A stretch of 64,000 nucleotides of DNA, taken from Pristiophorus japonicus (Eukaryota). The DNA is taken from contig NC_091984.1 of assembly GCF_044704955.1 (NCBI RefSeq), positions 147,126,001 to 147,190,000 on the forward strand, written 5' to 3'. Of the stretch, positions 4,010 through 35,659 are shown in pieces (within the stretch, counting starts at the first letter, position 1; every line of letters begins with the position of its first letter). The position numbers and the translations under genes are program-made. The notes under the pieces were generated by a model. The model ran no database searches. It had not been told where the DNA came from and saw only the letters and a list, made by a program, of their open reading frames with translations.

Positions 4010-6876
4010 TGTCATGTATCTCACATTACTGTATATAACTGTATCTTACCATGCTATACATGACTGTAACTGGATAAGACCTGTAACAATAAGCATACCT
4101 TACCACCAGGGGTGCACTTGCAGGAGACACTCCATACCTGTCCCACTGAGGTATTTTAAGGGAGGTCTCAGGCAAGTGCAGCACGGGAGAGCTGGAATTA
4201 AAGAGGCAGGTCCTGACTGACTTTGACTTCAGCATGTGTCTTGTGTAAGTCAGTACATTAGAGTCAGGACTTAACAGTGGCGACGAGTTACGGGATCACA
4301 GAATCCACAGAATGGCTACCAACAGCTCAGATGAGAAATACAATGCTGGAGACAATTGGGATGACTTTATAGAAAGGCTCCAGCAAAGCTTTGTGACCAA
4401 AGACTGGCTTGGCGATGATAAGGCAGACAAGAAAAGAGCCCATCTCTTGACCAGCTATGGCTCGAAAACATATGCTTTAATGAAAGACCTGCTGGCACCC
4501 GAGAAACCAGCAAGCAAGTCATTTGAGGAGTTGAGCACACTGGTAAGAGACCATCTGAAGCCAGCGAGCAGCCCACACATGGCCAGACACAGGTTCTACA
4601 ACTACAGATGCTGTGTGGGCCAAAGCATACCCGACTTCGTGGCGGAACTTCAGAGGCTGGCTAGTTCATGTGAGTTCCCCGATGAATTAAGGAGAGAAGT
4701 ACTGACAGACTTTTTTATTAAAGGAATAGGCCACGCAGGCATATTCCGAAAGCTTATAGAGACTAAGAACTTAGTCTTAGCAGGCGAGGAGGAAACGAGG
4801 CTGATCTATACTTCAGGTACGACAACCAACGAGGTATTGGAACAAGGGGTTCACATTGTGAAACAAACCACTACCCCGACACACAGACAAAGGCAGGAAA
4901 GCTGGTCTTCAACAGCAAACAGTGGCACCAGAAGCCATCAAAATCAAGGGCCACATGAACGGCCAGTCACACCTCATCAACCCACAATGCGAGCAATCAA
5001 CAACAGATTGAGAGAAGCTCAAGGGAGATCAGCTAGATGCAGCTCATCCTTTGTAAAACAATGGAAATGGTCTGTGTTGGAGATGTGGGGGAAGGCACTC
5101 AACCAGGGTGTGTCGATTTCAGCATGCCATTTGCAGAAACTGCAACTACACAGGGCATCTGGCTCGCATGTGCAGTAAAACAGCAGCTCGGCTGGTACAC
5201 GAATCAGAAGGGTCGAAAAGCGGACCAGAAGACGGTTGAAACAGTGCACGGGACGCCGAGGTACAGCGGGTTAACTCGATCAATGTCCACTGTTCTTACA
5301 CCAAGACGCCTCCAATTATGATGAGGGTTCTACTCAACGGGATACCCGTCAACATGGAACTGGACAAGGGGGCCAGTCAATCCCTCATGAGCGTTCAACA
5401 ATTTGAACAGCTGTGGCCGCACAAAAGCAACAGACCAAAACTCACAAAGATCGACACCAAACTAAGGACCTATACTAAAGAAATCATCCCAGTCCTTGGA
5501 AGCGCCATGCTCTCAGCCACACACAAAGAGATGGTGAACCGACTTTCCCTGTGGATTGTCCCCGGGGATCTCCCAGCCCTGTTGGGGAGAAGCTGGCTAG
5601 CAGAACTTAATTGGAAATGGGATGATGTTCACGCCATGTCGTCAGAGGAACGGACCTCCTGCTCAACAGTTCTAAGCCGTTTTGAACATCTCTTTCAGCC
5701 AGGTGTGGGCACCTTCAAAGGGGCTAAAGTTAGAAACTACATCACACAGAATGCTAGACCGGTCCATCACAAGGCTAGAACTGTGCCTTATGTGATGAGG
5801 GAAAAGATTGAAAACAAACTGGACCGGCTTCTGCGGGAAGGCATAATTTCTTCCGTGGAATTCAGTGACTGGGCAAGCCCCATCGTCCCCGTCATGAAGC
5901 CTGATGGATCCGTGCGAATCTGTGGGGATTACAAGTCTGCCATAAGCAGAGTCTCCCTACAGAACCAATACCCACTGCCCAGAGTGGAGGACCTATTTGC
6001 CACGTTAGCTGGAGGAAAGCTTTTCTTGAAACTTGACCTCACATCTGCGTATATGACGCAAGAACTGACCGAAGAGTCTAAGCTACTCACCACCATCAAA
6101 ACACATCGAGGCCTTTTTGTGTACAATCAGGTTGGCAGCTGATATATTCCAGCGCAACATGGAGAGAGTCTGCTCAAGTACATTCCGGGGACGGTTGTGT
6201 TTCAAGATAACATACTCATCTCCGCAATCTTGAGGAAGTACTAAGTCGATTTGATCGAGTAGGCCTAAGAGTTAAGAAATCCAAGTGTCTGTTTCTCGCA
6301 CCTGAAGTTGAATTTTTGGGCAGAAGGATTGCCGCTGATGGAATCCGCCCAACCGAATCCAAAACTGAAGCACCCAGGCTCCAGAATGTCTCGGAACTGC
6401 ACGCCTTTCTCAGGCTACTCAATTACTTGGAAACTTTATGCAGAACTTGAGCACGCTGCTGGAGCCTCTCCATGAGCTACTCAGAAAGGGGTGCGATTGG
6501 TTTTGGTGGGACGCCCAAGAACGCGTCTTTAATAAGGCACGCAACCTTCTATGTTCCAAGAGTGTTTTAGACTTTTTCGACCCAGGTAAAAAGTTAATCC
6601 TTATGTGTGATGCGTCAGCGTACTAGGTCGCGTGCATTTTACAGCACGTCAATGATGCGGGTAAATTGCAGCCCGTTGCTTATGCCTCCAGGTCACTTTC
6701 GCGGGCGGAGCATGGGTACGGTATGGTTGAGAAGGAGGCACTCGCTTGTGTGTACGGTGTCAAAAAGATGCACCAATACCTTTTCGGGGCCAAATTTGTG
6801 TTAGAAATCGACCACAAACCCCTCACGTCCCTACTATCCGAGTGCAAGGCAATCAACGCTAATGCCTTGGCGCGCT
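4010..6876 (+). mobile_element. Ty3/Gypsy LTR retrotransposon, 3'-truncated (5' LTR 4010-4276, PBS, gag, protease-RT-RNase H)
   Basis: TG...CA LTR, then TGGCGACGAG PBS at 4278-4287. Gag ORF 4312-5178. Protease LDKG and RT WASPIVPV..RICGDYK in 5318-6142. RNase H PVAYASRSL..EKEALA 6666-6878, with frameshifts. Confidence 0.92.
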
Positions 6877-22720: not shown

Positions 22721-22988
22721 CTCAGCACTTTTGGAACATTCTCCATGATGTCTCTGCCCCTGGCACCAGGGAGTACATACCATATACTTTAACCCACATT
22801 CTTCACATGTTTCACTGCAATTCCATGTTACAATCACTCTCCAGTCGACAGATCAAGCAGGAATAAAGCATCAAGTTCCCATCCGGATTCTGCAGTAAAG
22901 CTGTACATTTCACCCAAACACTCTGAAAGGCCTAATGTGTTGTACCCTGCTGGCTGATTCTCTATTTCTGTTTGTTTCCCATTTACAG

Positions 22989-23898
22989 CTAACGTGATGA
23001 CGATTGTGATCCTGTCCCGGGGAAAGTGTGATCTCTCCGGATGTGTCACTCGCTACCTGGTGGCCATGGCAACAGCTGATCTACTGGTCGTTATCATTGA
23101 CGTGATACTGTATTGGATTAATGATTATTATTTCCCTCCTACCTTCCTGTTGATCACCCCTGTGTGCTCTGTCCAACGTGCCCTAAAAGATGCCGTCACA
23201 GACATTTCTGTCTGGTTAACCGTCGCTGTCACTTTCGATCGATTTGTTACCATTTGTTGCCAGAAGCTGAGAACTAAATATTGCACCAAGAAAACGGCCG
23301 CCGTGGTGATAGGAACCGTGTCTCTGCTGTTCTGTTTAAAACCATTCCCTGGTACTTTGTAATGGAACCCTACTATACAATCGACAACATATCCTGGGGC
23401 TGCCGTGGTAAACTAGAGCATGATCCTGCAACTGCTTGGGTAGCATTTAGCTGGATTCCCCGCTGTGTCACCCCATTGCTCCCGATATTGCTGATATTGT
23501 TGCTCAATGGTCTGACTGTACGACACATTTTGATGGCCAGCAGAGTCTGCAGGAGGCTGAGGGGCAGCAGGAATGATGTGAATCACAAAGATCCAGAGAT
23601 GGAGAAGCGAAGGAAATCCATCATCTTGGTCTTCGCTATATCCGGCAACTTCATCCTGCTCTGGGTGGTGAACGTGATAGTTTTATTACTCACCTGAATT
23701 ACAAAAAATTATTATTCAACAGGTGTCAAAGACCCGCTGTTGATCACAGATCAAACCGCCTACATGCTCCTGCTCTTGAGTAGCTGCACAAACACGGGTA
23801 TTTATGCAGTGACCCAGACTAAATTCTGAGAGGAGCTGAAGAATGGGGCGAAATATCCACTGAATCAAATATTGAGATTAGTTAAACATGCACAATAA
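22989..23898 (+). pseudogene. Main exon of GPR139-like class A GPCR pseudogene
   Basis: Polypyrimidine-CAG acceptor ends at 22988. Motifs NVMTIVILSRGKC, LVAMATADLLV, TFDRF and SCTNTGIY. 1-nt frameshift near 23341; premature TGA at 23695 and 23827; final TAA at 23896-23898. Confidence 0.9.
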
Positions 23899-23970: not shown

Positions 23971-26900
23971 TGAAATGGAGTATTTAAATAAACACTCGAT
24001 ACCAGGTCTGTGTTCGAAGATTTAAGCTGTCTTTATATTGCACCGGTGGGGAGGTGACCTGCTCCAGGTCTAACCTGGTCACTGTCCAACGATACATCAG
24101 TTTCAACAGCTTTTTATACACTTAAACAGACATGCTCAACCTCACCATTCTTTGGCACCATTTGATTCGTTCAAAACCCATGTGCACAGTGGCTGATTGG
24201 TTACCTATTTTTATGCCGAGCTCACGTAACATTCAAAGTTTGTCTGAAGTTTGTGGTTTGTACATTTGAAGCCGTTACTGCTCCTTAGACTAGTCGTTTA
24301 CCAACCACATCCCGTGCTTGTGCTTCGGACGTTATTTTACAGGATTCTTTGTAGCTTAAGCCTGTCTGCGGTTTATGTGTATATGCCCTTTCAGCCATTG
24401 AAGGTAGTTTGCAGCTTGCATTTTTAACCCCTTAATTCCTGAAGGTTGCAATGTCCCACTTCAGTCCCCCCTTTTGGTACTTGGGTACCCAGCCCAAGAA
24501 TACGAACCTAATTCTGCTCCATCCTGTGTCCCCTGCCCCATTCTGTGGGGGCCCGGGACGTAACCTACGTCTCAGAATATTTCAGGGTGCTCGGCTAGTA
24601 ATTTCCGCTGTTCCATAATCAACGACTTTGCTTTCCTTTTCCTGCATGCCAGAAATAACGCAATTCCACATCCCACTGCTAATCCTAACTGTATAACCAC
24701 CAGTACATGAGAAGCTATAGGAATCCATGGATGGATATCCACACTCATTCCCCAATCCCATACATGTTTCCACCACTGAGTGTCCTTTAGGGTTTCTTCG
24801 ATGTCCTTCGAATGCTTTATGGTATCTTCCAAAATCTCCTGATAATGTACTTTTACTTTCTCAGTGGCCTTTTCCAATTGTATCAAATGTTCTTCGAGAC
24901 GGGGAATGCTCTGCCAGCTGGGTATCTCGAATTGTTTCATTTCATCATTCCATTCTGGGTTGTTCAAAGTCCTCCTTTTGTGGGAATAGGTATCGATGGC
25001 CTATCTGGACCACAGCTTTGGACGTAAAACAGAAATTAAGTTGTGGGATCGCACATATGACATTACCATGCTTGTACTCATTTACCTTGGTAGGTATGCA
25101 GTACGTCCCATCATCCCGGGCTGCCACCTCAGTCCCTCCCTGACTAAGGGGGCTGATTTCCAGCGTGTAATTAACCCTCTGATTGACCCCGCATGCTGTA
25201 CGTTGCCCTCCTTCTATGGTGTGTGCAGACACTATCACATCTGAATATTGCGTGCAGCTGTCGATGTGCACCCCTTGGAAAGGGCCACTTATTTTCATCA
25301 CATGGGGAGGGGGATATCGTAAAATAAAACCCAGGATTGACCTTGTATCTCGCCAATGTTCCATACTGTCAATTGGCCCAATTAACTATCCAAATTCATT
25401 ATATCTTCCCTTTGGCAGTTACATGTTTAACTCTATTCTTACAGTGATATTTACTTGCCTATGCAAATAAATACTTAATGACACCCGTGCCCCAAGTCTC
25501 ACAGTTTGGACTGGGGTAAAACAAACATTCCCGTCGCGATGGGACAAGTCAGGTTGGTACCGTACTGGTATTCCCGGTATAAGGTGCTGACACAATATTG
25601 ATACTTCCCTCTTTATACGGATCCTGCAGGAAAATGCTGTCCTTCATGCTGCAGTTCCATGTTATCCCATCCCAATTAAACCTGCCTGCAGAGGCTGCAA
25701 GTTCTACCAGGTTGTAGAGGCAAATGTCCTGAGCTTGAGCACATCCAATTCAGCCTGGGGCTACACATGTTTTTCCTATCCACCCGGGTTACATCTCCGG
25801 TCTTCATTGTATCCTATTACATTTTCTCAGGCATGATTGGGTAATACCCTACTATCTCTAACAGGGTGGTGTCATTCTGTTCCTGTAAATGGCACTCGTG
25901 CCACCGGGTACATCTGTACCAACCTTCTGACTTGCCACAGAGTCTCAGTAAGTTGATAAGTCGAACTTGCCCTCAGATCTCGATCAGTTACCCAGAAAGG
26001 GAGCTTTCCCTCTACAATATGCTGCAGTTTACCTTGGGCTTGTTCCACTAACCAAGATCCATACATTACTTCCAGTCGTTTCATTGAAGATGATTTGTTC
26101 ACCTTCTACAATCTGGTTTACCCCCTTTTTAGCATTAAACCAGTTGCAACATATTAATCAGGCCTCACTGCCTTCTGTTATGATTCTCCCCAATAGTCTC
26201 GACACCATTCTTGTCAAGGTACGATCAAGCCCATCTCACTCCCTAAATTCAGTGCAGGTTGTACTGGCCCTCTCCCAAAATCCCTTGATCATTCTCCCAT
26301 GTAGCCACGCTGTTTTAGGCTTGCACCACCCAGGTAGTCCCACTTTGGTCAGACTCAATATTACAGGTAACACTTTGTGATGCACATCATGGTACAATAT
26401 CATCTGAGTTGAGATTACCATTAGCCCAGTTGTTGGCCCTGGAATGTGTTTATGACAGACAATTTGCCTTTCCCACAAATTGTTTATTCATTGGAGAAGG
26501 ATCCTTAGGTTGAGTTTAAAAAAAAACTCTACTGCTTTTACAACTCCTGTCCTTGCACACCTTGATATACTGGACGGTTAGAGTGGGATGATTACCATGC
26601 TCTGTAAATGTACCCTTATCCTATACCCTCGGCCATCCCTACTTCCACCATTCACAATTTGTCTCTTACTACATTGTGGGATTGGCGGGGTTTGCGAGGT
26701 ATGTCTGTGTACAGGAGGTGGATCCAGATCTGGGACCCGAGGAGATTCTTCCACGTCCGTGTCCTGTCCACTTCCCTTTGGATCATACTGTACCTGATTA
26801 GGTGGGCGTATCCCTTCTTCCTCATCCCCCTGGAGAGGACGAAACCCACTCCCCATGTTCATAACCATTTCCTCTTGTCTCAGTACCTGTTGGTGAACTG

Positions 26901-29473
26901 AAAAAATTTAATCTGGTTAATATAAAACCATTTAATTCTCCTAGTTAACCGGGCTGCATATACCATGCGACGAGCTTTATCAACAATATTATACGGTCCC
27001 TTGTTCCGGAGTTCAAAACTTCAACCCTGACATAGTTTTGTTCTATTATCTGGCCCCCCACCTCCCACTCCTGAGATTTACTCAGGGCCACATGTACTCG
27101 GTTACGGTGGTGTGGCATCCTGATCCCTCAGGCGCAATCCACGAACCCGTTTCTTCCCGATGGTCACCAACTTAAAACAAAAGAAACAGAGAATCTCTGG
27201 TGATTCTGCTTAAGAGCCTGAGGGGTTAATTTGTAATATGATCCTAAAATTCCTTCTACCCCAGGAGCAAATATTCTCTTCAAATTAAGAAAATCTCCAA
27301 TATTCAAAAGGTATTGCCCACTGAATTAAAACAGAGTTCACAGCTGCCTGTGAAAGGGTTAACTTCCTTTGTTTCGAAAGCCGACAAACACAGACACCAT
27401 CAATCAATGTCAACCTTCGTCCCACAGCTTGCAGCCTTTCCAGTTTAACCTCTCTGTGTGTCTACATTTAAAGTAAGCTTAAAATAAACATTCAGAAACA
27501 CAACTCTGCACACAATCGCATTTCATGTTTTTCTTCCCAGATACACATTGGTCAGAATTTTTTAAACGATACCAATTATTGATGTGAAATGCCTTATGTT
27601 CGAAACTAAAGTCTCTCCACACAATTTACACCAACCAGAATTTTATCGGCCAGAATAAAAGTCTGATTTTTAATAGGTTCATTAATTTCAGTAATTCCAA
27701 TCTTAAACTCTCCAATGCCACTTGGAAAAGGGGGAGGAGCCACAATCACATGAAGGAGTATGCCTTCCCAAAAACTTTAAACACAGAAAAACACCAGAAC
27801 AGTGAAGAAAAACATAATCTTCCCTTTTCTCCTTTTAATTGACTCATAACTATTCATTATTCCTTAAACCAGTTTCAATTTCTGATCCCCGTACACTCCA
27901 AGTGCACCTCTGATTACCTTTTAAATGTGGTGAGGGTTTCTGCCTCTTCCACCCTTTCAGGCAGTGAGTTATAGATCCCCACCACCCTCTGGGTGAAGAG
28001 ATCTTCTCTAATCCTCCCCCCTTATATGTTGTCATCCTGACGTGTGCTGTCACCATCACACCTTCTGTCGGTTTATTTCGTCACTTCTCAGTCAATAGTC
28101 TAGTCCGTCTACTTAATTCTCAATACGCGCTGGTCAATAAATGAGGACTTTCTCCTCTTTTTGTTTCTTTTCCGACTCCCACCACTTCCTTTGTGCCGCA
28201 GGTGCATCGTCTGGTTTCCAATTTAGTTTAATCTTTATTTCAATTAGTTTTCAATTTTTATCTGTTAGGTACAATGTCAGAGACCGCTCTAGTCCCAACT
28301 CGAGTTTCTCACTTCCCATGGGTAGATGTTGTCAGCTGTACATTCCTTAATTACTCGCCCTGAGTGAGACCGATACTTGCAACCCTATCCTCTTGGTTGT
28401 CAATGGTACGCCCCTTACTTACTCCTCACAATTGAGACCGATACTTGTAGCATTTACCAACTATCAATGGAAATAGGAGGTGGGTGGGGTGGCTTGACCC
28501 ATCCACCTCCACGGAGGTGTGTGGGGGGCCTGACCCATCCACCTCCATGGCACGAACCTGGTATTGCAGTACTTCCAGGAACGGTGCAGTGGCTCTAGGC
28601 CTTTTGGCTAAGAGCATTGGCGCAGAGTGATCCTTGATGTGTGCAAGGTTTTTGTGATTTGATTTGTGATTTGTTTGTGGCGTTTGTGATTTGACAAAGA
28701 ATTGGAAAGATTGGCTACGAATTAAAAAAAAAAAATTTACCAACTATCAATCGCAACATTAATCAAACACACTTTTATATTACCGATCGGTTTACCTGGG
28801 ATCTTCCACTGACTACTTGAAGTCTTGGCCAGACATGCAGATTCAGATCTCTCAGGCAGCTGACAACAGACAGATTTCTGCCCTTGTCCTAACTGTGCAT
28901 GGTAATTAAATTGTAATCACACCTTTGACATGGCCTCTATCCGCCGGTGTCCGCTGTCTGCTTGAGATACTGCCGACTACGCCAATTGAAGTGGAGTATT
29001 TAAAATAACCACTCGACACCAGGTCTGTGATCGAAGATTCAAGTAGTCTTTATTTTGCACTGATGGGGAGGTGACCTGCTCTGGGTCTAACCAGGTCACT
29101 GTCCAACGATACATAAGTTTCAACAGCTTTTTATACACTGAGAGGTACATGCTCAACATCACAATTCTGTGGTACCATTTGATTCGTTCAAAGCCTGCAT
29201 GCACAGTGGCTGATTGGTTACCTATTTTTATGCCTAGCTCGCCAAACATTCAAAGTTTGCCTGAAGTTTGTGGTTTGTACATTTGAAGCCGTTACTGCTC
29301 CTTAGACGAGCCGTTTACCAACCACATCCCGTGCTTGCGCTTCCGACATTAATTTTGAGGATTCTTTCTAGCTTCAGCCTGTCTGCGGTTTATGTGTACA
29401 TGTCCTCTCAGCCATTGCAGCTAGTTTGCAGGTTGCAAACCTTAATTCCTAAAGGATGCAATGTCCCACTTCA
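23971..29473 (-). mobile_element. Endogenous retrovirus-like element: LTRs, tRNA-Ser PBS, integrase tail, degraded env; gag-pol largely deleted
   Basis: LTRs at 23971-24463 and 28987-29473 (TGAA...TTCA). PBS TGGCGTAGTCGGCAGTAT at 28967-28984. PPT AAAAGGGGGGAC at 24464-24475. GPY integrase motif near 26990. Env-like ORF pieces 24572-26478 with a C-terminal TM segment. Confidence 0.9.
28469..28734 (+). mobile_element. U2 snRNA-derived poly(A) retroposon, copy 1
   Basis: 17-bp TSD ATTTACCAACTATCAAT at 28452-28468 and 28735-28751. U2 3' stem-loop IV sequence at 28557-28588, U2 5' sequence GGCCTTTTGGCTAAGA at 28598-28613, then an A-tail. Confidence 0.85.
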
Positions 29474-29660
29474 GGGACCAATAGGAAAGAGCCATGTTTC
29501 CTGGTCCTTATTGGGGGACCAACAGGAAGGAAACATGTTTCCTGGGTCCAATTGGGGGACCAATAGGAAGGAGCCATATTTCCTGGTCCCTATTGGAGGA
29601 CCAATAGAATGGAGCCATGTTTCATGGTCCCTATTGGAGGACCAGTGGGACATGGAGTCC
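29474..29660. repeat. Minisatellite, about 40-bp unit GGGACCAATAGGAAGGAGCCATGTTTCCTGGTCC...
   Basis: About 4-5 direct copies. Confidence 0.8.
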
Positions 29661-30574: not shown

Positions 30575-30761
30575 GTACCAATCTCTCTCCTTCCACGTTT
30601 AATATCTCCCTTCTGTCGATTTCTGTCCAACTCTACTGACCAGTGATTGAAGGGCAAATGCTGACACTAGAGGAGAGCTCAGTGTCTCGAGCAATCTCTC
30701 ATTTTACAGCGTCTTTCTGTGACAGTGCTTACTTCACTTTCTTTCCCCATTTCCCCCTCAG

Positions 30762-31060
30762 GTATCAGTGGGGACATCATCATGACCCAGTCTCCCCCGG
30801 TGCTGTCAGTGAGTGAGGGACAGACTGCAACCATCACCTGTACCGCCAGTGCATCCACCAGCAATTATGTTAATTGGTACCAGCAGAAAGCCGGGCAGAA
30901 ACCCACTCTGCTGATCTATGACGCAACATCTCGTTTCACTGGAACCTCCGATCGCTTCACCAGCAGTTACCAGTCCAACACGTTCACCCTGAGCATCAGC
31001 AAAGTGCAGAGCGAGGATGTCGCAGTCTATTACTGTCAGCAACGTCAAAGCTTCCCTCGA
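30762..31060 (+). CDS. IGKV: Ig light chain kappa-type (NS4/type III-like) V segment, unrearranged
   Basis: AG acceptor at 30760-30761. Open frame DIIMTQSPPVLSV...TITC...WYQQK...LLIY...EDVAVYYCQQ. Confidence 0.97.
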
Positions 31061-31088
31061 CACTGTGATACACAGCCATACAAAAACC
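31061..31088 (+). other. 12-bp-spacer recombination signal sequence
   Basis: CACTGTG, then ATACACAGCCAT (12 nt), then ACAAAAACC. Confidence 0.95.
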
Positions 31089-31126
31089 TCAATATACACA
31101 GCCCCACCTCCTGCACCGTGCTGTCG

Positions 31127-34012
31127 GCCCCCAACACTGCCCCGCTCCCACCCCCAACACCGCCCATCTCCCAGCCCCAACACTGCCCCGCTCCCACCCC
31201 CAATAGCCCCCCTCTCCCTCCCCCAACACTGCCCATCTCCTGCCCCCAACACCGCCCCTCTCCCATCCCCAACACCGCCCCTCTCCCATCCCCAACACTG
31301 CCCCTCTCCCATCCCCAAAACCGCCCCACTCCCTTCCCCAACACCGCCCCTCTCCCATCCCCAACACTGCCCCTCTCCCATCCCCAACACCCCGCTCTCC
31401 CACCCCCAACACTGCCCCTCTCCCATCCCCAACACTGCCCCTCTCCCATCCCCAACACCCCCTCTCCCATCCCTAACACCGCCCCTCTCCCATCCCCAAC
31501 ACCCCCCTCTCCCATCCCCAACACAGCCCCTCTCCCACCCCCAACACCGCCCCTCTCCCATCCCCAACACCGCCCCTCTCCCATGCCCAACGCCGCCCCT
31601 CTCCCGCCCCCAACACCGTCCCTCTCCTGCCCCCAACACCGTCCCTCTCCCGTCCCCAACACCCCCTCTCCCGCCCCCAACACCGTCCCTCTCCTGCCCC
31701 CAACACCGTCCCTCTCCTGCCCCCAACACCGTCCCTCTCCCGTCCCCAACACCCCACTCTCCCATCCCCAACACCGCCCCTCTCCCATCCCCAACACCCC
31801 ACTCTCCCATCCCCAACACCGCCCCTCTCCCACCCCCAATACTGCCCCTCTCCCATCCCCAACACCGCCCCTCTCCCATCCCCAACACAGCCCCTCTTCC
31901 CATCCCCAACACCCCCCTCACCCATCCCCAACACTGCCCCTCTCCCACCCCCAAAACTTCCCCTCTCCCATCCCCAACACCCCCTCTCCCATCCCTAACA
32001 CCGCCCCTCTCCCATCCACAACACCCCACTCTCCCATCCCCAACACCGCCCCTCTCCCACCCCCAACACCGCCCCTCTCCCATCCCCAACACCGCCCCTC
32101 TCCCATCCCCAACACAGCCCCTCTTCCCATCCCCAACACCCCCCTCACCCATCCCCAACACTGCCCCTCTCCCACCCCCAAAACTTCCCCTCTCCCATCC
32201 CCAACACCCCCTCTCCCATCCCTAACACCGCCCCTCTCCCATCCACAACACCTCCCTCTCCCATCCCCAACACCGCCCCTCTCCCACCCCCAACACCGCC
32301 CCTCTCCCATCCCTAACACCGCCCCTCTCCCATCCCCAACACCGCCCCTCTCCCATGCCCAACACCACCCCTCTCTCGCCCCCAACACCGTCCCTCTCCT
32401 GCCCCCAACACCGTCCCTCTCCTGCCCCCAACACCGTCCCTCTCCCGTCCCCAACACCCCCCTCTCCCATCCCCAACACCGCCCCTCTCCCATCCCCAAC
32501 ACAGCCCCTCTCCCATCCCCAACACCCGCCTCTCCCATCCCCAACACCACCCCTCTACCATCCCAACACGGCCCCACTCCCACGCCCAATACTGCCCTTC
32601 TCCCATCCCTAACACCGCCCCTCTCACATCCCCAACACCCCCCTCTCCCATCCCCAACACTGCCCCTCTTCCACCCCCAACACCACCCCTCTCCCATCCC
32701 CAATGCCGCCACTCTCCCATGCCCAACACCACCCCTCTACCATCCCAACACGGCCTCACTCCCATCCCCAACACCCGCCTCTCCCATCCCCAACACCACC
32801 CCTCTACCATCCCAACACGGCCCCACTCCCACGCCCAATACTGCCCTTCTCCCATCCCTAACACCGCCCCTCTCCCATGCCCAACACCACCCCTCTCCTG
32901 CCCCCAACACCGTCCCTCTCCTGCCCCCAACACCGTCCCTCTCCTGCCCCCAACACCGTCCCTCTCCCGTCCCCAACACCCCCCTCTCCCATCCCCAACA
33001 CCGCCCCTCTCCCATCCCCAACACAGCCCCTCTCCCATCCCCAACACCCGCCTCTCCCATCCCCAACACCCCACTCTCCCATCCCCAACACCGCCCCTCT
33101 CCCATCCCCAACACCCCTCCTCTCCCACCCCCAACACTGCCCCTCTCCCATCCCCAACACTGCCCCTCTCCCATCCCCAACACTGCCGCTCTCCCATCCC
33201 CAACACCCCCCTCTCCCATCCCCAACACCGCCCCACTCCCATCCCCAATACCCCCCTCTCCCATCCCCAACACTGCCGCTCTCCCATCCCCAACACCCCC
33301 CTCTCCCATCCCAACACCGCCCCTCTCCCATCCCCAACACGCCCCTCTCCCACCCCCAACACTGCCCCTCTCCCACCCCCAACACCGCCCCTCTCTCACC
33401 CCCAACACCCCCCCTCTCCCATCCCCAATACCCCCCTCTCCCATCCCCAACACTGCCGCTCTCCCATCCCCAACACCCCCCTCTCCCATCCCCAACAACC
33501 CCCTCTCCCATCCCCAACACTGCCCCTCTCCCACCCCCAACACTGCCCCTCTCCCACCCCCAACACCGCCCCTCTCTCACCCCCAACACCCCCCCTCTCC
33601 CATCCCCAACACCCACCTCTCCCATCCCCAACACCCCCCTCTCCCACCCCCAACACCCCCCTTTCCCACCCCGAACACTGCCCCTCTCCCTCCCCCAACA
33701 CCCACCTCTCCCATCCCCAACACCGCCCCTCTCTCATCCCCAACACCGCCCCTCTCCCATCCCCAACACCGCCCCTCTCCCATCCCCAACACACCCCTCT
33801 CCCATCCCGAACACTGCCCCTCTCCCATCCCCAACACCCCCCTCTCCCATCCCCAACACCGCCCCTCTCCCATCCCCAACACCCCCCTCTCCCATCCCCA
33901 ACACCCCCCTCTCCCATCCCCAACACTGCCCCTCTCCCATCCCCAACACCACCCCTCTCCCACCCCCAACACTGCCCCTCTCCCATCCCCAACACCGCCC
34001 TTCTCCCGCCCC
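31127..34012. repeat. 2.9-kb C-rich minisatellite, about 22-nt unit CCCCTCTCCCATCCCCAACACCG
   Basis: More than 100 variant copies. It explains all long Pro- or Gly-rich ORFs here. Confidence 0.97.
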
Positions 34013-35659
34013 ATTCACTTTTTTACAACAAATGAATAAATTTCAATCATTTCTCCGCTCCATCTATTCTGGCGGAAATCCGACATTTTGCTCGAATTAT
34101 CCGCCCCAAACGGTTCAGAGGACAATTTCCAGCCCATCGACCTGTATCTGAATCGCTGCCAAGCCATTCAACAATCAAAGCAGAATTAATTTGTTTACAC
34201 ATGTGTTAGTAGAAAGCTGGAATTGTCTCCCACATAAGGCAATGGATTTTCGGACAATATGGAGATTTCAAGGCGGAGATAGAGAGATTTTTGTTGGGGT
34301 AGGGTATGAAGACATAGGGAGCAATGGAGTTGAGGTTCAGATCAGCCATGATCTAATTGAATGTTGGAGAATACCCGAGGGGCTGAATGGCCCCCTTCTG
34401 ATCCTCATGTTCCTATGTTCCTGTACTAGAGAGTTTTTCCCAAACGGTGGGCGCAGGCAAAACTGGGGTTGGAAGGTTGGGGGTCAGGGGTCATACAATG
34501 AATTGGCCAATGATGACAGCCTTGTCAGTGATTGAGAGCGTGGAAGTAGTGAGGCCAGGAGAGAAGGCAAAGTATAGGGGGTGGCCCATGGTGATGGGTG
34601 GGAGTGTTTTAGGGGCAACAGGAGGTGCAGTGAAATCAGAGGAGACTGGATAAGGGGAGGTGAGATGGAGATTGAGATCAGTGAGGATGAAGAGTCACTG
34701 AGTATCGAGGCTGAAGGAGGAAAGCAGGGAGGATATGTGGGGGAGAAACCTGGGCTGGTCGGCAATAGATGGCCATTTTAAAGGGGCGAAGACTGGAACA
34801 CATGTCACAGTGGACCGCTCTGATGTCACAACAAAATGCTCTGATGTCACAACCACTTCCTCATGACGTCATTAAACAGTTTCAATCCTCAACACATGAA
34901 AAACCCAATTTGGGTCAATGCTGCTGGAAATGTCTGTGGGACACTCCCATTTCTACACCTTTTGCCACAAGTCTGTGGTGCGGAGGGCTGTCTATTAGGA
35001 AGTGCCAGCTGCTCAATCCAGCATGGCTGCCCAGGGATGTGAATGTTGCCTTGTCCGTATGGTCTGTATCTCAGGTCTGGGCCTTCACCCCCAACACCCA
35101 CCTTAAACTGACACACACAGCGGGCAGGACTTATATGGGCACATGACCCCCGCGGGACACATCACCACTGAGGGCTCATGTCCCCTGGCCTCACAATGAA
35201 AACTATGGCAACACAGAAACCGCAGGGGTGGACCAATCACAGCAAAGTGGTACAGACTGTGCATTTGTGCCTGAGAGAGCAACTACGAGAGAGTCTCAAT
35301 CTATTTAACCCTTCGAACCCTGGCTGTCATCTGAAAACTAAGCCCGAGTTGGCAGAGGCAGTGACTACATTATTCCCGCTGTTATTCTGCGTCCTGCTCA
35401 TTCATCTCAACCCCTGTGATAATGTTTCTCTGCTCAATGGTACTGCTCCCCACGGCAAATCCAACCAGAGAGATTTCTCAGCTGGGTGTGAAACATGGAG
35501 AAGCAGAGATGGGCATGGACTGTGTGGGGGCACTAAAGGACCCACTGGCTCCGACCAATAATAAAACAGTCGGTAAGGACACGGTGAAAAGGGGGGGATG
35601 GGACCAGATGATGGACCTGGGCAAGTCTGACAAGGTGGCTGTCCTGCCGGGGGTGTGAG

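Follow-up and report, generated by a model that had tools for sequence, protein, structure and literature searches.

A truncated copy of a young U2/U1-headed SINE in Pristiophorus japonicus, and the probable part of U2 gene arrays and a Keno-type LINE in its spread

The window analysed here is a stretch of 64,000 nucleotides of the Pristiophorus japonicus genome (contig NC_091984.1, positions 147,126,001 to 147,190,000 of the forward strand). It contains a short retroposon inserted antisense to a decayed LTR-bounded retroelement, within the 5' leader of that host. The parts of the insertion, named after the U2 stem-loops, are as follows.

23971..29474, minus strand: decayed LTR-bounded retroelement, the host; LTRs about 90% identical; context, not part of the SINE
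28452..28468, plus strand: left target-site duplication, 17 bp; single at empty paralogous sites
28469..28734, plus strand: 5'-truncated SINE copy of the A-type subfamily; whole members are about 110 nt longer on the 5' side
28476..28510, plus strand: U2 stem-loop III derivative, first copy; stem more perfect than that of U2
28513..28546, plus strand: U2 stem-loop III derivative, second copy; the duplication is common to subfamilies A-D, not private
28550..28589, plus strand: U2 stem-loop IV and U2 3' end; matches the genome's own U2
28594..28616, plus strand: second, internal U2 stem-loop I (U2 nt 7-29), 21/23 match; also in sister families
28617..28723, plus strand: family tail; its T-rich stretch at about 28649-28677 is slippage private to the window copy
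28724..28734, plus strand: A-tail
28735..28751, plus strand: right target-site duplication, 17 bp; single at empty paralogous sites

The insert between the 17-bp repeats measures 266 nt and ends in 11 A. In five of nine paralogous flanks (L153, L155-L158) the repeat is present once and the site is empty, and a SINE is present in the other four, bearing out an earlier note, made from the letters of this DNA, that had read the 17-bp duplication and A-tail as the marks of an insertion; the duplicated GC hairpin that it reported is likewise real. Element nt 42-121 align with nt 109-186 of the genome's own U2 (61/78, score 78, shuffle maximum 31) and nt 126-148 with U2 nt 7-29 (21/23, score 38, shuffle maximum 31), which upholds the proposed succession of stem-loop IV and stem-loop I. 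In U2, the loop of stem-loop IV is the U2B'' binding site. The insert is more stably folded than any of 200 shuffles (z = -5.66). An Rfam search, which the earlier note had recommended as a check, gave no U2 match at E <= 1 for the window copy alone but placed whole copies over the U2 cut-off in all 10 loci scanned; matches of the window copy to a prion pseudoknot and to snR13 fell below the cut-off and were taken as chance. The permuted U2 order that the note described does exist in the window copy, but it is not the design of the element: whole copies begin at U2 nt 1, and the apparent permutation is therefore that of a 5'-truncated element with an internal, older head. The window SINE amounts to the 3' two-thirds of a longer element, one beginning at U2 nt 1 and including U1 sequence, and its internal stem-loop I is likely the older head of an ancestral element.

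The two LTRs of the host (approximately 23971-24464 and 28987-29474) are identical at 438 of 485 positions, and primer-binding-site-like and polypurine motifs are present. One minus-strand ORF resembles an envelope transmembrane remnant, as judged by eye, but a Pfam search of the host's ORFs gave no match; consequently the LTR-bounded, minus-strand element that had been called an ERV is only plausibly one, judging from its sequence. This host element has many paralogues, several of them within duplicated segments of the same chromosome. In three paralogues (L150-L152) two other SINE copies occupy the site of the window SINE, and the site has therefore been used independently more than once. 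Elsewhere in the window, on the plus strand, rhodopsin-family GPCR sequence in two reading frames (22958-23694) adjoins the LTR element and appears broken, an immunoglobulin V-set exon is followed by a 23-bp minisatellite that leaves the frame open (30671-34039), and weak matches to retrotransposon gag and aspartyl protease lie near the Pfam cut-offs (4249-6142).

The window copy belongs to a large family. An exact 31-mer of the SINE has 4,828 matches genome-wide (reversed control 0), a lower bound on copy number, and a DNA similarity search returned 694 candidate loci. A whole SINE is about 350 nt long. It opens with the U2 5' end and a U1 5' piece, continues with the U2 Sm site, the two copies of stem-loop III and one of stem-loop IV, and closes with a second U2 stem-loop I, a tail of about 95 nt and poly(A). 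Long copies reach about 110 nt further upstream than the window copy, to the first U2 bases. U1 nt 3-57 are recognizable in the A, B and F types (45/54, 45/55 and 47/54; scores 63.5-75 against shuffle maxima of 30-39.5), and the C and D types gave no U1 match over threshold and keep, by eye, a shorter U1-like stem. Loci L006 and L008 have an extra U2 piece upstream of the SINE. No tRNA, 5S or 7SL match at E <= 1 was found in the 10 loci scanned with Rfam, and the element holds an internal run of 5-6 T; it has no head with an internal promoter and is not a classical Pol III SINE. Nor is it a functional U2 snRNA gene, its middle being replaced by U1-derived sequence and, unlike in such a gene, stem-loop I and the tail following the U2 3' end.

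Along one chromosome, 73 copies were taken in order as an unbiased set; 43 of them begin at nt 1-18, four in mid-element, 22 around the end of the Sm T-run (-5 to +20) and four further 3'. Four subfamily types are represented among them, at 94-100% identity to a reference copy. A target-site duplication was called in 74 of 143 copies, with a median of 16 bp, some of these calls being false. Tandem copies of different subfamilies that share one duplication are frequent (L049, L062, L108, L113, L117, L135); of such copies the newer is the upstream one, with a duplication that often extends into the first bases of the older. The 31-mer count and the subfamilies indicate amplification from source copies rather than a sum of independent chimeras. 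The thousands of copies, the mosaic and the subfamilies support the earlier proposal of a U2-based SINE akin to the crocodilian SINEU instead of a simple U2 pseudogene, and we regard it as virtually certain that this is a real, young, SINEU-like family of which the window holds a truncated copy.

The earlier note further held that the element retains snRNP-protein binding structure, and this stands in part. Stem-loop IV persists, loop included, and stem-loop III has become a more perfect and stabler stem, giving the 3' domain of the SINE a folding energy of -35 to -43 kcal/mol compared to about -30 in U2. However, the hairpin covariation that had been suggested as a test amounts to a two-sided change in one of 21 pairs among nine aligned sequences, and only between two native U2 types, and the Sm-site A is lost in the commonest subfamilies (A/B).

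The window copy begins at the first base after the Sm-site T-run, which is position 0 of a zone in which 5' ends pile up: 22 of 30 truncated copies (from L049-L118) start within 26 of about 230 positions (p = 3.5e-15 versus uniform), as do three of five truncated copies of a sister family. The Sm ring protects the corresponding part of U2 (PMC9610496). As a simple rule, though, the Sm ring is unsupported as the cause, because the subfamily with the canonical Sm site is the least clipped: D copies with that site are rarely clipped (none of 11, and four of 30 in the D subset), and copies with the mostly-A tail, from which the Sm-site A is missing, often are (14 of 32). Candidate causes of the pile-up are a protein roadblock, RNA processing, and a hairpin in the RNA or the cDNA.

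Besides the main family, the genome holds at least two other SINE families that derive from U2 and whose tails are related; one of them is very homogeneous. A search with the tail core and a different preceding base gave 535 matches; among 30 tail-core loci examined, 18 belonged to a sister family, 11 were intermediates or variants of the main family and one was unrelated. The sister family (L142, L120-L147) consists of a whole U2 (165/178), then U2 nt 4-30, then the related tail, and in a more U2-like form (L130:1570-1730 and L223:6680-6930) the tail follows from about U2 nt 36-38. Arranged from U2-U2-tail to U2-U1-U2-U2-tail, the forms make a series of repeated 5' addition of U1 and U2 pieces, which were likely gained through template switching. 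In such an ancestry, a short insert at a U2 target site would have become a U2-headed element, a whole U2 would then have been added in front through a template switch, and U1 pieces would subsequently have taken the place of the U2 middle.

Searching for junctions between an A-run and U2 nt 39 onward returned 107 matches, which overlap one another and cluster in U2 arrays (control 0). These arrays contain a partner LINE of 5.7 kb, which has a U2-like head of its own; its ORF1 is ZCCHC3-like/zinc-knuckle, its ORF2 (endonuclease-RT-zf-RVT) is open over 1147 aa, and its relatives include proteins named Tx1-type. Its 3' flank starts at U2 nt 39, the 3' flank described for Keno and Utopia (PMC4640811, section 6), and because its endonuclease is APE-type it is Keno-like, an assignment made from domains and target site rather than from an RT tree with named Keno sequences. 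It shares with Keno the Tx1 domain set (APE-type endonuclease, RT, Tx1-type ORF1) and the flank at nt 39 (PMC4640811, PMC4494074). It differs in that it also inserts widely outside U2 genes, and as the putative autonomous helper it is itself no SINE.

The SINE and this LINE share target sites. SINE targets comprise U2 genes and mixed repeats, and its dispersed sites, with their median duplication of 16 bp, show a loose R-Y/A-W nick that fits the U2 site, although this consensus is weak, the method itself partly dictates its A and the preceding base, and some of the listed duplications are false calls. The commonest off-target site, occupied by the SINE in at least seven of 159 loci, was hit by the LINE twice genome-wide (control 0), and at L280 LINE and SINE stand in tandem within one duplicated target. 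These shared sites make it very likely that a Keno-type LINE is the helper, and other L1/Tx1 families may also serve. In the C9 U2 cluster (L182, L229, L286) the LINE sits in the U2 nt 38/39 site of sister-family SINEs, which keep the target word; in the LINE's own head and in the heads of the A-D SINEs this word is altered, which may protect from insertion or avoid interference with splicing.

Whole SINEs of the D type are also found in the arrays. They begin at the U2 start site with the native upstream flank immediately in front of them, and after an A/T tail of 26-70 bases the sequence resumes at U2 nt 39 and runs on to the native 3' end. In counts that may miss units crossing piece ends, the starts behind the native flank are occupied by 11 LINEs, five SINEs and one U2 in array C19, by 24 U2 and five SINEs in C1832 (one more SINE lies at the edge of the piece), and by 26 U2 and four SINEs in C1868; array C1003 has 44 U2 starts, no SINE, and one LINE downstream of a U2 start. 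On C9, a U2 flank of a second type precedes one further SINE (L228). Two types of U2 gene occur in the genome (L032 versus L182); they differ in upstream flank and in their variant of stem-loop IV, and one lies in a short tandem unit that has a microsatellite spacer, the other in a long repeat unit. At C19:69.62-69.73 Mb (L231-L242), 16 of 17 U2 starts are taken by a LINE or a SINE, and most of the LINEs have an open ORF2. The 14 array copies measured fall into two sequences (12 and 2), so they may represent one insertion spread by array turnover, and C1832 and C1868 may be duplicates of the C19 array. The open ORF2s, the A/T tails of 26-70 bases and the near-identical copies make the LINE/SINE system look recently active.

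These observations are probably best accounted for if the window holds a 5'-truncated copy of a young U2/U1 SINE, with a Keno-type LINE as the likely mobilizer and the copies in U2 genes as likely transcribed sources. At integration, the U2 head of the SINE would pair with or replace U2 nt 1-38, so that the external Pol II promoter of the U2 gene would be captured. Transcription would continue across the SINE, in which stem-loop I takes the place of the U2 3' box, and on into the genomic A-tract. Transcripts from snRNA promoters are normally not polyadenylated, which weighs against this read-through step. Endonuclease and reverse transcriptase of the LINE would then copy the SINE in trans, which the shared sites suggest and for which no shared tail would be needed; the targets would be U2 genes as well as loose R-Y/A-W sites throughout the genome, duplicated over about 16 bp. 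Dispersed copies such as that in the window would be promoterless dead ends. The DNA anatomy of such a capture is seen in one subfamily, the mechanism is suggested by that anatomy, and we think it fairly probable, from sequence, that the U2 promoter has been captured.

The same SINE and helper might instead be transcribed mainly from dispersed copies through flanking host or transposon promoters, the array copies being only sinks; read-through of this kind was proposed for SINEU (Kojima 2015, PMC4494074). Several subfamilies appear active side by side, and only D-type copies are promoter-linked: A/B-type heads, those of the window's subfamily, gave no match behind either type of U2 flank. The sources of most copies are thus unseen, and those of the window's subfamily may have been lost by array turnover, may be unassembled or may be of another kind. 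The D-subgroup tail marker occurs 204 times, and of 30 dispersed D-type copies compared with the array variant 28 differ from it, which favours dispersed sources. However, L269 is identical to the array variant over its whole length, private changes included, and L278 carries the one diagnostic base of that variant that it covers, matches that do not fix the direction from array to genome. Whole copies moreover start at U2 nt 1-18, with a shared 5' extension in none of the 43 inspected by eye, and the promoter of U2 is the only one seen ahead of any copy. We consider dispersed sources an improbable explanation.

It is considerably less probable still that the SINE comes from a LINE, as a non-autonomous derivative or as its 3' end, in the manner of the R2 SIDEs, with U2 pieces added on top. 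LINE and SINE both begin with U2 nt 1-33, the heads of the LINE and of the C type share a T-to-C change at U2 nt 39, and the tail of the oldest sister family starts at about U2 nt 36-38, the Keno site. Against such an origin, SINE tails compared with 30 L1/Tx1 3' ends gave no match better than E 0.94, and 10 of 12 comparisons with the intact LINE stayed within 60 shuffles, the other two being slightly above (scores 29 and 31 versus 27.5 and 28). No LINE was present among the 30 loci fetched by the tail core. The 3' end of the helper is thus not retained, derivation of the tail from the partner LINE was rejected, and the earlier note's alternative of a LINE 3' end finds no support, as the search that it advised for a partner LINE sharing the tail found none. 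Another reading, in which the copies are processed U2/U1 pseudogenes or chimeras that arose independently, or else members of a variant snRNA gene family, would agree with the passage of the Rfam U2 cut-off by whole copies and with the position of some copies behind a promoter flank in U2 arrays. It is scarcely credible, however, and already largely refuted by the 31-mer count, the subfamilies and the array anatomy. Thousands of copies have in common the mosaic, the doubled hairpin and the tail, and diagnostic bases divide them into subfamilies; types A, B and D have an altered branch-point pairing sequence; and the array copies are inserted into U2 with an A-tail instead of replacing it.

Among known systems the closest are SINEU-1, -2 and -3, short, A-tailed retroposons with U1/U2 heads and repeated 5' additions of U1 and U2 pieces, which the additions suggested here would parallel step by step (Kojima 2015, PMC4494074). 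In both, tandem copies can lie within a single duplication, the element contains a T-run and shares its tail with no LINE, and the helper, a probable one in the present case, is a Tx1 element related to Keno (PMC4494074). The present family likewise has a U1/U2 head, a length under 500 nt, poly(A), target-site duplications, amplification from source copies and sites shared with a Tx1 element. SINEU is reported from crocodilians alone, with a Mariner element as target (PMC4494074), and a 2017 review places it only there (PMC5381603), whereas the targets here are U2 gene nt 38/39 and loose sites; neither a preference for Mariner-N4_AMi nor a crocodilian host, which would speak for descent from SINEU-1/2/3, applies. 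Further differences are the position of whole copies behind the promoter flank of U2, the intact state of the putative helper, and a layout of U2-U1-U2-U2-tail in which stem-loop III is doubled. Two stretches of the SINEU-2 head given in PMC4494074 are, by eye, unlike the U1 piece of our SINE. We conclude that this SINE works like SINEU and, as target and host differ, likely had an independent birth. No report of a SINEU-like element in cartilaginous fish or of a SINE in U2 genes was found in the literature covered by our searches, and the family may already be catalogued, for instance in Repbase/Dfam.

R2 SIDEs and R2/R1 hybrid SIDEs resemble the SINE as non-autonomous elements in a tandem RNA-gene array at the site of their helper, and are co-transcribed from the host gene (PMC3414825), which would have its counterpart in the U2-array SINE. 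They are described there as internal deletions of a LINE that keep its 3' end and ribozyme and are confined to rDNA, in contrast to a SINE made of snRNA pieces, without a LINE-shared tail and at thousands of dispersed sites. Processed snRNA pseudogenes and snRNA/L1 chimeras have in common with it the snRNA pieces joined by template switching, the A-tail and the duplication, but are one-off events as presented in PMC4494074, and the present family amplifies and has subfamilies.

More tentatively, one could envision a Pol II SINE with two habitats, whose sources are renewed by homing into U2 arrays, the U2 head restoring the start, and whose RNA is a mimic snRNP, with the 3' domain routing it through snRNP assembly to the LINE proteins and the pile-up being the particle's footprint on reverse transcription; we regard this fuller scheme as rather unlikely.

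How snRNA-headed SINEs are transcribed was left open by Kojima 2015 (PMC4494074), a puzzle because the promoters of U1 and U2 lie outside the RNA. Borrowing of the promoter from a U2 gene would explain the transcription of such promoterless elements, and the combination of whole copies at the U2 start, the probable helper's site and apparent recent activity makes promoter capture directly testable. If true, this finding would mean that snRNA-headed SINEs also arose outside crocodilians, and independently, and the U2 arrays would be seen to be burdened by two parasites, a LINE and a SINE.
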